In this document: positions 13,613-15,042 of the stretch, one piece after another
Layout: the number at the start of each line of letters is the position of its first letter
Numbering within the stretch: position 1 is the first letter of the stretch
Assembly: GCA_964493715.1 (NCBI GenBank)
Contig: CAZBPC010000017.1
Span: 1 to 48,227, forward strand
Length of the DNA stretch: 48,227 bases
Direction: 5' to 3'
Source: an uncultured archaeon
GTDB taxonomy: Archaea > Asgardarchaeota > Lokiarchaeia > Sigyniarchaeales > SOKP01
Translations under genes and position numbers: made by a program
Notes under the pieces: model-generated
Database searches by the model: none
What the model saw: the letters and a program-made list of their open reading frames with translations, nothing else
What the model was told of the DNA's origin: nothing

Positions 13613-13822
13613 TTATTTATTATAAGAAAAATGATTAAAGAAAGGTCATTTTACGTAGGTATTATCTTTTATTCCGAGAGATCTCAAGATCTGTTTCTAA
13701 AATGAAAAAAAATAAATTATATGAACTCCTTTAATGATTATCATCATTGTAAATTTAATTAAAAGAATTAAAATTATTCAATCAATTAATTTAACAAATT
13801 ATAGATAATAACAATCAAAGAA

Positions 13823-15042
13823 GTGATCAATATAACTAATCAAGTTGATTTTACAACTAAATATATTATTGAAGCGAATTTCAAAATTATGGGAGTGGTC
13901 GAAAAATCCGATATTGTCGGTGCGATATTTGGCCAAAGATAAAAGATTTAAGCCATTTCGGCATAATCGGCTAAACCGAAGGTCTTCTTTTGGATCTTGA
14001 CTTACGAGATCTTCAAAAGTCAGGAAGAATAGGGCGTATTGAGGTTGATACTGAATCTAAGGAAGGAGTTACCGAAGGAGTTATCAAGATTCCCAGTAGC
14101 CTTACACGAAAAGAAACCGCACTATTAGCAGCGACAGTAGAGTCTGTATCGAGAGTTGGTCCTTGTGAAGCAGAAATCACTCTTATTGAAATTCGAGATG
14201 TACGTGAAAGAAAACGAAAGAAAATAATCGAAAGAGCAACAGAACTTCTGAAAGAATGGGATCAAAATTCATTAGAACCAAGTGAAATAGAAGAGAAAAT
14301 AGACACTGATATTAAATTAGGGGAAATTATCTCTTGGGGTCCAGAAAATCTTCCTGCAGGTCCAGATGTAGAATCTAATAAGGAATTAATTATTGTAGAA
14401 GGGAGAGCAGATGTTCTAAATCTTCTAAGGATTGATGTGAAAAATACTATAGCCGTCCAAGGGACTCAAATACCGAAATCAATTGTTGATCTTGCAAAAA
14501 CCAAAAGCTCAGTTATAGTATTTTTAGATGGAGATAGAGGTGGTACTATAATTCAAAAGGAATTAGCACAACTAATAAAGATCGATTACATTGCCCGCGC
14601 TCCCGAAGGTTATGAAGTAGAAGAATTAACCAGAAAGCAAATGATTAAATCTTTGCAAAATAAAAAATCTATAGATGACATAGAAGAAAAAGATTCAGAG
14701 CCAGTGGAAAAAGAATATTCTGGAAGAGATGCGAACCTTAAGAAATTTTTAAAAGGCACTAAATTAAAAAATCACGATGCAATAATTGAAGTGATTAAAA
14801 ATGTACCTTCAGGGCAAGGTTTGGGTTTTAATAAGAATATGGAAAAATTATTCGAAATTCCTGTTGGAGAACTCTTCGAAAAAATCAAAGAATATAAAAA
14901 CACTCAAGTTTTGATTTTAGACGGTATCTTAACAAAGAGATTACTATCTTCCGCTTTATCGATGAAACTAAAATTAATAGCATGTAAAAATAAGGAAGAA
15001 GACCTCACCATTCCATACAATATTGTAGTTTTCTTTTTCTGA
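13823..15042 (+). CDS. dnaG: Archaeal DnaG (TOPRIM, exosome-associated), encoded as exon 1 13823-13936 plus exon 2 13975-15042, about 393 aa if spliced
   Basis: Exon 1 reads ...TTKYIIEANFKIMGVVEKSDIVGAIFGQ. Exon 2 reads TEGLLLDLDLRDLQKSGRIGRIEV...IIVEGRADV...FLDGDRGG. Joined, they give the conserved archaeal DnaG N-terminus. The GTG start at 13823 is tentative. Confidence 0.9.
13937..13974 (+). other. Putative BHB/BHL-type mRNA intron in dnaG (38 nt)
   Basis: Central helix GGCC(13931-34)/GGCT(13969-72), 3-nt AAA bulges (13935-37, 13973-75) and inner helix GAT/ATC. Cutting after the second bulge nucleotide at each site joins CAA|ACC in frame. Confidence 0.8.

Follow-up and report, generated by a model that had tools for sequence, protein, structure and literature searches.

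We examined the dnaG gene of an uncultured Asgard archaeon (Lokiarchaeia; Sigyniarchaeales; SOKP01) in a 48,227-nucleotide (nt) stretch of DNA, here called the window, which covers positions 1 to 48,227 of contig CAZBPC010000017.1 in assembly GCA_964493715.1. On the plus strand of the window the DNA reads GGC CAA, then 38 nt (positions 13937 to 13974), then ACC GAA GGT, and these 38 nt split the conserved FGQ|TEG motif of DnaG between Q and T. Upstream, the segment that we call exon 1 (13823 to 13936, plus strand) has 38 codons when read from GTG 13823, and its residues 13 to 38 match positions 1 to 26 of the NCBIfam profile NF003108; in this frame the N terminus closes with ...GAIFGQ and runs into AGA TAA, the TAA being the second codon of the insert. 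Downstream, exon 2 (13975 to 15042, plus strand) begins with TEGLLLDLDLR and stays open to the stop codon at 15042, giving 355 codons plus the stop, of which residues 1 to 249 match profile positions 27 to 276 with 353.6 bits. Deleting exactly the 38 nt, which sit between profile positions 26 and 27 (plus strand), yields a DnaG collinear with the profile, with zero residues gained or lost.

In the list of open reading frames (ORFs) for the window, the long dnaG frame is given TTG 13990 as its start, five codons past the insert, and a separate ORF of 39 amino acids (aa) is listed at 13823 to 13942. An earlier interpretation made from the DNA letters and this list (the sequence-only reading) had pointed to the internal TTG start, to a missing N terminus lying upstream in another frame, and to a 38-nt insert that has TAA as its second codon and is not a duplication of its flanks, and every one of these sequence statements holds. 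Its claim that excision gives exactly FGQ|TEG agrees with the profile junction 26|27, and its attribution of the DNA to a probable Asgard archaeon was right, the relatives being Promethearchaeota (former Lokiarchaeota). The host genome, which totals 3.68 Mb over 160 contigs with a completeness of 100% and a contamination of 3.85%, has a single dnaG match.

We found that the insert is real DNA and not an assembly artefact, because a 1071-nt contig from an independent DNA run of a different sample (X2) matches 13650 to 14283 with 0 differences and 0 gaps, giving the insert the DNA support that the sequence-only reading had sought, and because same-site inserts are also present in many separately assembled relatives.

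The borders of the insert can form a motif of the bulge-helix-bulge (BHB) kind, as read by the archaeal tRNA-splicing endonuclease EndA, which cleaves each bulge after its second base. A central helix (H) pairs GGCC at 13931 to 13934, which lies in the Gly and Gln codons, with GGCU at 13969 to 13972. The first bulge, AAA at 13935 to 13937, places the predicted 5' cut after 13936, and the second, AAA at 13973 to 13975, places the predicted 3' cut after 13974, so that 13975 opens exon 2. Inside the insert, an inner helix (h') pairs GAU at 13938 to 13940 with AUC at 13966 to 13968, and a small hairpin at 13952 to 13962 consists of GCC, the loop AUUUC and GGC, its 3 pairs being kept in 15/15 alignable distinct sequences. 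The 3' strands of both H and h' show covariation among relatives. Outside the central helix, no base pair can form in the window. All of these elements lie on the plus strand, and all but the small hairpin had been named in the sequence-only reading, which also took the missing outer helix to mean a relaxed form of the motif.

We next describe how this site (site A) looks in related genomes. The genus contains 41 species genomes, 38 with a dnaG match; of these, 18 are interrupted at precisely this site, another 18 keep an unbroken FGQTEG (one of them with an insert at another site), and in 2 the N terminus is off the contig. Across the order (152 genomes), a site-A insert also turns up in seven further genera of this family and, outside it, in a single genome from a different family (G026), and it was not found in the 12 genomes of family f2 and the 4 of family f4 that have a dnaG match. 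For the comparisons that follow we pooled 150 loci with motifs and collapsed them to 115 distinct exon-2 peptides, a set that excludes L022 and other loci whose N terminus is off the contig. These 115 distinct dnaG sequences divide into 52 that have a site-A insert, 3 whose insert is a different one and 60 that are without an insert. The 52 site-A inserts are 29 to 43 nt long, 48 of them are not multiples of three, and every one of the 52 brings a stop codon into the exon-1 frame.

The central helix is paired at 4/4 positions in 52/52 site-A introns, through 7 compensating combinations of its two strands: GGCU is partnered by GGCC (28 of 52) or GGUC (9), GGGC by GCCU (5) or GUCU (2), and GGAC by GUCU (5), GUUU (2) or GUUC (1). 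The intron strand of this helix changes along with the Gly codon, matching whichever synonym is used. The first bulge reads AAA in 33 of the 52, AGA in 9, AAU in 8 and AAG in 2, bulge 2 is AAA in 49, and h' has at least 3 base pairs (bp) in 44 and at least 2 bp in 50 (3 bp in the window). In an alignment of 19 sequences, pairing is complete over H, h' and the inner hairpin (157/157 cells), with two double-sided changes; this pairing score was matched by 1/500 shuffles, and slid controls pair at 2.5 to 50%. Across 16 distinct sequences h' is paired in 100% of cells, including a compensatory change from UA to CG. As judged from these alignments, the helix is maintained by compensatory evolution. 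The proposal that relatives would have inserts at the same site with compensatory BHB pairing was thus borne out in 52 of the 115 distinct dnaG sequences. Because the outer helix (h) has 0 bp in 52/52, the dnaG motif is the relaxed HBh' form, which is defined in passages of PMC6379350, and not the canonical hBHBh' form. In the canonical form, both the exon-exon helix h and the intron-intron helix h' have at least 2 bp.

We also compared the last 27 codons of exon 1 between 51 intron-bearing genes (one intron-bearing row with <81 nt upstream was dropped) and an intronless reference, and found 89.5% identity at the protein level, 76% at the DNA level and no stops. Since protein identity exceeds DNA identity and stops are absent, exon 1 is under purifying selection. 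A decayed exon 1 accompanied by an intact dnaG elsewhere in the genome, which the sequence-only reading had named as the outcome that would speak against an intron, is contradicted by the conserved exon 1 and the presence of one dnaG.

To look at RNA, we aligned the contigs of three metatranscriptome runs (X15, X16 and X17) to the window. In run X17, one 151-nt RNA contig lies on 13877 to 13934 and 13973 to 14062, skipping 38 nt, and the 3-nt ambiguity of this skip takes in the predicted junction 13936|13975. It has two variant letters in common with the X15 and X16 contigs. In X15 and X16, positions 13920 to 13977 are covered by no contig, and these runs are silent on the presence or absence of splicing. 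We also observed that the X15 and X16 contigs start at 13978, where the DNA run continues, a feature that could at best faintly hint at a branch point, and that the X15 and X17 RNA contigs diverge from the window by 8 to 14% in exon 1 and by about 2% in exon 2.

The genome encodes two EndA paralogues, which lie at L084 1150-1773 and L085 1210-1827. The first (207 aa) has its nearest counterparts among the catalytic subunits of Crenarchaeota, matching the Aeropyrum pernix chain 3p1z_B at 1e-36, and has the residues KPR aligned with the K44/R46 segment of the A. pernix "Crenarchaea-specific loop" (CSL). In the second (205 aa), the catalytic His is absent in an alignment to the Methanocaldococcus jannaschii enzyme (1a79), and this protein looks like a structural beta subunit. 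The enzyme is predicted to be a two-subunit (alpha-beta)2 EndA with a broad-specificity loop. According to passages of PMC3241643, the A. pernix loop, including Lys44, gives cleavage of relaxed bulge-helix-loop (BHL) substrates, and according to Kaneta et al. (PMC5829648), Asgard EndAs are (alpha-beta)2 enzymes that have this L1 loop. A gene for RtcB, the presumed ligase, is present with an archease gene adjoining it, and rtcB is itself interrupted. Although the genome is 100% complete, ARAGORN found only 27 tRNA genes in it, and 12 of these contain an intron; the low count fits reports of many Asgard tRNA genes being hidden by non-canonical introns.

On the basis of the exact profile junction, the single dnaG, the compensatory helix in 52/52 introns, the selection on exon 1, the encoded enzymes and the skip in the X17 contig, we conclude that the 38-nt insert is very probably an EndA/RtcB-type BHB intron of the relaxed HBh' form inside the protein-coding dnaG gene. 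In the pre-mRNA, the terminal exon bases GGCC would pair with GGCU near the 3' end of the intron as a 4-bp helix, with a 3-nt AAA bulge after each strand and the 5' bulge closed inwards by GAU/AUC and the small hairpin. An (alpha-beta)2 EndA with its Lys/Arg loop would cleave both bulges behind their second base, and RtcB would ligate the exons and possibly circularise the intron. The spliced mRNA would then give full-length DnaG with its N-terminal domain intact, while unspliced mRNA would meet a stop two codons into the insert. EndA and RtcB as the agents, the positions of the cuts and splicing in this very strain are what we infer from this evidence. That archaeal DnaG belongs to the exosome and has an N-terminal domain that binds RNA, as the sequence-only reading had it, is documented in PMC4227792 and PMC3672285.

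Several observations weigh against this conclusion. The sole RNA contig that bridges the insert differs at 10/148 positions and so comes from a close relative, not from this strain; junction RNA of the kind anticipated in the sequence-only reading was therefore found as regards the exact 38-nt skip and not as regards its source. This relative is known from RNA alone, and the genus also has intronless dnaG alleles. The intronless alleles seen in the genus have 70 to 81% protein identity to the DnaG of the window, and the two nearest sequenced relatives (88 to 89% protein identity) both have the dnaG intron. We regard the X17 contig as suggestive of splicing and not decisive. The motif itself also has weak points, in that h' has just 1 to 2 bp in 8/52 introns and the outer helix has 0 bp in 52/52, which leaves the 3' cut site as a helix followed by an unclosed bulge. 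The minimum free energy (MFE) fold of 13915 to 13995 is unexceptional (-19.3 kcal/mol, z = -1.16, with 26/200 shuffles equally stable), and it prefers a 7-bp helix, UUUGGCC/GGCUAAA, that absorbs bulge 2. The U beside the helix that is paired with bulge 2 in the MFE fold is C in 7/19 aligned sequences, and the extension of the helix over bulge 2 is thus not maintained. Folding energy counts as evidence for neither side. In addition, the presumed ligase gene rtcB carries an insert, and a genome-wide motif scan found BHB-like motifs that would join two open frames across inserts of 16 to 65 nt no more often (2,300) than six controls with slid partners (2,236 to 2,331). Given the ordinary z value of the fold and a scan at the level of the slid controls, the motif in one sequence alone would prove little; its weight comes from the exact profile junction and the covariation.

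The motif scan started from 34,811 raw candidates, of which 6,449 remained after a codon-usage filter, and stricter filters on structure or ORFs still gave no excess over the controls. Because the true geometry is no commoner than in slid controls, the scan is unable to count introns. It does recover dnaG and rtcB, and its best-structured hits pointed to three further genes, leuS, aEF-2 and nadE, and to two probable cases. The scan candidates C6:8018, C70:6031 and C73:3909 were dropped since family continuity was absent, and C11:31019 (SMC), C38:28074 and C129:2151 were not supported on inspection by eye.

The insert in rtcB is 29 nt long (G000:C2:12134-12162, minus strand, G000 being the host genome; L086 at about 2668-2696) and lies at GVGY|DINCG, between positions 47 and 48 of the Pfam RtcB profile. 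Its motif is canonical, with H formed by UUGG/CCAA, bulges AUA and AGA, an inner helix of 9 bp and an outer helix of 2 bp. Among the 141 genomes of the order with an RtcB match, five have this insert (G000, G001, G080, G087 and G089, in three genera), and the other 136 have no rtcB insert at the 47|48 site, four truncated matches stopping at contig ends. The copies of the rtcB intron differ at 1 to 4 nt between the three genera, and flanking synonymous sites differ as well. In a BLAST search against the genome, the dnaG and rtcB inserts gave self-hits only, with no second copy, and so are not a repeated element in this genome.

Inserts of 30 nt with BHB geometry are also present in leuS (G000:C44:26027-26056, plus strand; TIGR00396 76|77), in aEF-2 (G000:C76:5211-5240, minus strand; TIGR00490 60|61) and in nadE (G000:C39:8748-8777, plus strand; PF02540 143|144). 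As in dnaG, the EndA cut rule yields exact profile junctions in rtcB, leuS, aEF-2 and nadE. The two probable cases, both with no profile proof of the junction, are a 30-nt insert in a gene for the beta subunit of a 2-oxoacid:ferredoxin oxidoreductase (G000:C53:2033-2062, minus strand) and a 39-nt insert between two domains of a molybdopterin oxidoreductase (G000:C15:41248-41286, plus strand). A probable second insert in aEF-2, of 31 nt (L179 2235-2265, minus strand), would split AHID|HGKTT and has a central helix paired at 3/4 positions by eye; we take its position to be given by the AHxDHGKT motif and the geometry. The first exon of aEF-2 (32 aa) has no NCBIfam match at E ≤ 1, and its PDB match is meaningless. 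The cbf5 gene of this genome is uninterrupted, with one open frame over TIGR00425 positions 5 to 319 and no stops. An orthologue of the crenarchaeal cbf5 intron is ruled out, the intron being in dnaG and the genome's own cbf5 being intact.

Inserts in dnaG are also found at two other positions. At site B, 18 nt upstream of site A, a 30-nt insert that is in frame, contains a stop and splits SDI|VGA is present in G042 (L039 192-221, plus strand), G114 (L047, minus strand) and G088 (L051, minus strand), which represent three genera and all lack the site-A intron. In its motif the central helix is paired at 3 to 4 of 4 positions and the bulges read AUA and AAA. The gene tree shows its three occurrences as separate events. 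In G042, about 105 nt of exon 1 round the site-B intron are 17 to 20% diverged from the nearest relatives (L005, L006, L007 and L021), compared with 3% in exon 2; this exon 1 is about equally near the distant intron-bearing G114 and resembles the exon 1 of that genome. L040 and L041 yielded empty slices and were left out. The difference in divergence between the two exons suggests that the site-B intron of G042 arrived by recombination together with flanking exon sequence.

Outside the order, we examined dnaG in 5 genomes that are among the matches listed of a phylum-wide search. Site-A inserts are present in two other Asgard families, in G266, G267 and G396 (L170 to L172), with lengths of 34, 31 and 32 nt and H paired at 3/4, 4/4 and 4/4 positions, respectively. 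In family f19, G251 and G260 (L173 and L174) have inserts of 28 and 31 nt at site C, 13 nt downstream of site A, which split TEGL|LGED in phase 1, with H formed by GCCU/GGGU (4/4) and an h' of 8 to 9 bp. In this family 18/18 genomes give two dnaG matches, a count of matches and not of verified introns. Between them, the different lineages have dnaG interrupted at three sites that all fall in a stretch of about 40 nt.

To follow the history of the site-A intron, we used a FastTree gene tree of exon-2 proteins (115 rows) with a midpoint root that parts families f2, f3 and f4 from f1. On this tree the site-A state requires at least 11 changes, at least 6 of them forced by well-supported branches, compared with a mean of 38 after shuffling. 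The earliest-branching f1 clades are all intron-bearing and the intronless clades are nested within. Given this branching order, the simplest reading of the tree is that the intron was ancestral to the family and was then lost precisely many times, and lateral gain would also be possible.

We considered other explanations for the interrupted gene. The broken frame, with TAA two codons into the insert, and the choice of TTG 13990 by ORF callers are what one would see if the insert inactivated dnaG and left a pseudogene or a dead 5' part, but this is the sole dnaG of a 100%-complete genome, and an insert at the same site recurs in 52 distinct sequences from many genera, with compensatory changes in the helix and more identity in exon 1 at the protein than at the DNA level. 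As exon 1 is conserved and the helix covaries in relatives, we exclude a pseudogene for practical purposes and judge it highly improbable. If the RNA were never spliced, translation could begin inside the gene, for instance at TTG 13990, and make an N-terminally truncated DnaG, either alone or alongside a separate 38-aa peptide, and the structure could serve, for example, translational control. An internal TTG does lie 5 codons past the insert, and no junction read comes from this strain; however, the frames are conserved to both borders and rebuild the invariant FGQ|TEG with no residue missing, codons 13975 to 13989 are kept as protein in all relatives, the EndA-substrate geometry and cut rule are exact in rtcB, leuS, aEF-2 and nadE too, and one RNA contig lacks exactly the insert. 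We find truncation very unlikely on these grounds. Translational bypassing, in which the ribosome would hop over the 38 nt, is known from phage T4 gene 60, where a 50-nt gap is bypassed and identical take-off and landing codons are needed. The dnaG gap resembles it as a short gap in coding sequence with a stop at its start (here just past the take-off region) and a hairpin, but the 4-nt elements that flank it are complementary and not identical codons, and they covary as complements (GGAC/GUCU, GGGC/GCCU), not as copies, which excludes hopping. Landing on these elements would not yield FGQ|TEG, and the X17 RNA contig lacks the 38 nt; the chance that hopping explains the insert is minimal. A group I or group II self-splicing intron was also rejected, the insert having just 38 nt against a core of hundreds, and Rfam models gave no match at E ≤ 1 on 13700 to 14200.

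A further question is whether the intron is spliced and also regulatory, such that the capacity of EndA and RtcB gates the production of DnaG, a component of the exosome cap, and of RtcB. This idea draws on the BHB intron that the ligase gene has beside its active-site motif, on the three sites hit within about 40 nt of dnaG in different lineages, and on the rtcB intron, which differs by just 1 to 4 nt among three genera where flanking synonymous sites differ. However, 63/115 relatives have no dnaG intron at this site, 136/141 genomes with an RtcB match have no rtcB insert at the site, and housekeeping genes of unrelated function (leuS, aEF-2 and nadE) are interrupted too. We consider such gating rather doubtful. 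Because about half of the relatives have no dnaG intron and unrelated housekeeping genes are hit, introns that are tolerated or selfish explain the pattern better than a dedicated circuit would. In our view, the dnaG intron is tolerated and largely constitutive, and a regulatory role for it is possible.

To our knowledge, crenarchaeal cbf5 has since 2002 been the only well-documented case of an EndA-type intron in an archaeal protein gene. The BHB intron in the cbf5 pre-mRNA, which encodes a pseudouridine synthase, was reportedly described by Watanabe in 2002 and Yoshinari in 2006. The references given in PMC5829648 and PMC6379350 are consistent with this position of cbf5, and the crenarchaeal cbf5 pre-mRNA intron is treated in passages of Yokobori 2009 (PMC2738675). 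Like the cbf5 intron, the dnaG intron is short, lies in an archaeal protein gene whose product acts in RNA metabolism, has BHB borders (often relaxed in cbf5 as well), is gained and lost among relatives and is found in host lineages with a hetero-oligomeric, broad-specificity EndA. In contrast to cbf5, its host gene is dnaG, its host lineage is Asgard/Promethearchaeota and not Crenarchaeota, dnaG has three alternative insertion sites, and several further protein genes of the same genome, including rtcB, are interrupted. Splicing of cbf5 has been proven by experiment, whereas splicing of dnaG is here read from sequences and the RNA contig of one relative. In the full-text literature searched, which excludes subscription-only papers and about 1.7 million PMC articles, no intron in dnaG or rtcB and no BHB introns in Asgard protein genes are described, and the main text of an Asgard tRNA-intron preprint has 0 occurrences of "mRNA", "dnaG" or "cbf5".

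The dnaG intron also shares its 4-bp central helix, 3-nt bulges, h' and lack of an outer helix with non-canonical HBh'/BHL pre-tRNA introns as described in portions of PMC6379350 and PMC5829648, where such introns are cut by (alpha-beta)2 or epsilon2 EndA. The genome encodes an enzyme with the same L1/CSL type of loop, and the intron length of 29 to 43 nt is within the range of tRNA introns. It is unlike these introns in that its host is an mRNA without a tRNA body, and the exon half of its motif consists of codons, which limits the synonymous Gly codons that can be used. In eukaryotes, HAC1/XBP1 mRNA is spliced by IRE1, which cuts, and by tRNA ligase or RtcB, which joins. Splicing of this type is mentioned in parts of PMC8718801 and PMC3400036. 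The dnaG intron resembles it in being a short, frame-shifting mRNA intron that would be removed independently of the spliceosome by a structure-reading endonuclease and RtcB-type ligation. However, cleavage here would fall to the tRNA-splicing endonuclease instead of IRE1, nothing implies a stress sensor, and the likeness is functional only. The sequence-only reading had suggested that RNA decay would be linked to splicing capacity in a HAC1/XBP1-like way, a possibility to which the interruption of rtcB lends some colour.

We conclude that the dnaG intron belongs with the crenarchaeal cbf5 kind and is the visible part of a larger group of introns in the mRNAs of this Asgard family. A mechanism known from cbf5 would thus operate on a different gene in Asgard archaea, the lineage nearest eukaryotes. 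It has rich comparative support from presence/absence polymorphism within one genus, three sites in 40 nt and compensatory evolution between codon and intron, and it is not isolated, since this genome has at least 4 further interrupted genes, among them that of the RNA ligase needed for the reaction. More tentatively, we propose as a possibility that Asgard archaea have dynamic EndA/RtcB-spliced introns in essential protein genes, gained by recombination with flanking exon sequence and lost precisely, and that the rtcB intron makes synthesis of the ligase depend on the ligase, a feedback that would also gate DnaG. If true, this would amount to a protein-enzyme-based economy of mRNA splicing in the closest prokaryotic relatives of eukaryotes. 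Standard gene callers split or truncate such genes, as with the DnaG called from an internal TTG, and this affects analyses of marker genes and proteomes in Asgard metagenome-assembled genomes. With the pairs of metagenomes and metatranscriptomes that already exist, it becomes possible to test how introns are gained and lost in prokaryotic mRNA.

Some minor features of the dnaG loci were also noted. The interior of the intron nearly repeats the 3' splice-site element: …UCGGCUAA is followed by AUCGGCUAA in L009, L016 and L036 to L038, and in the window (13957 to 13974) UCGGCAUA is followed by AUCGGCUAA. This near-repeat could act as a decoy 3' site, with a product that contains a stop. The bin G022 holds two dnaG genes (on C91 and C40), one with a site-A intron and one uninterrupted, which are 70 to 76% identical to each other's relatives; with its contamination of 6%, this bin probably mixes two strains or species. 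The true start codon of dnaG is uncertain, as GTG 13823 is kept in several relatives, the frame that begins with it has a stop at its third codon in L021 and L048, and an AT-rich, TATA-like box lies at about 13799 to 13809. Given these stops and this box, the real start of dnaG may lie elsewhere than at GTG 13823.

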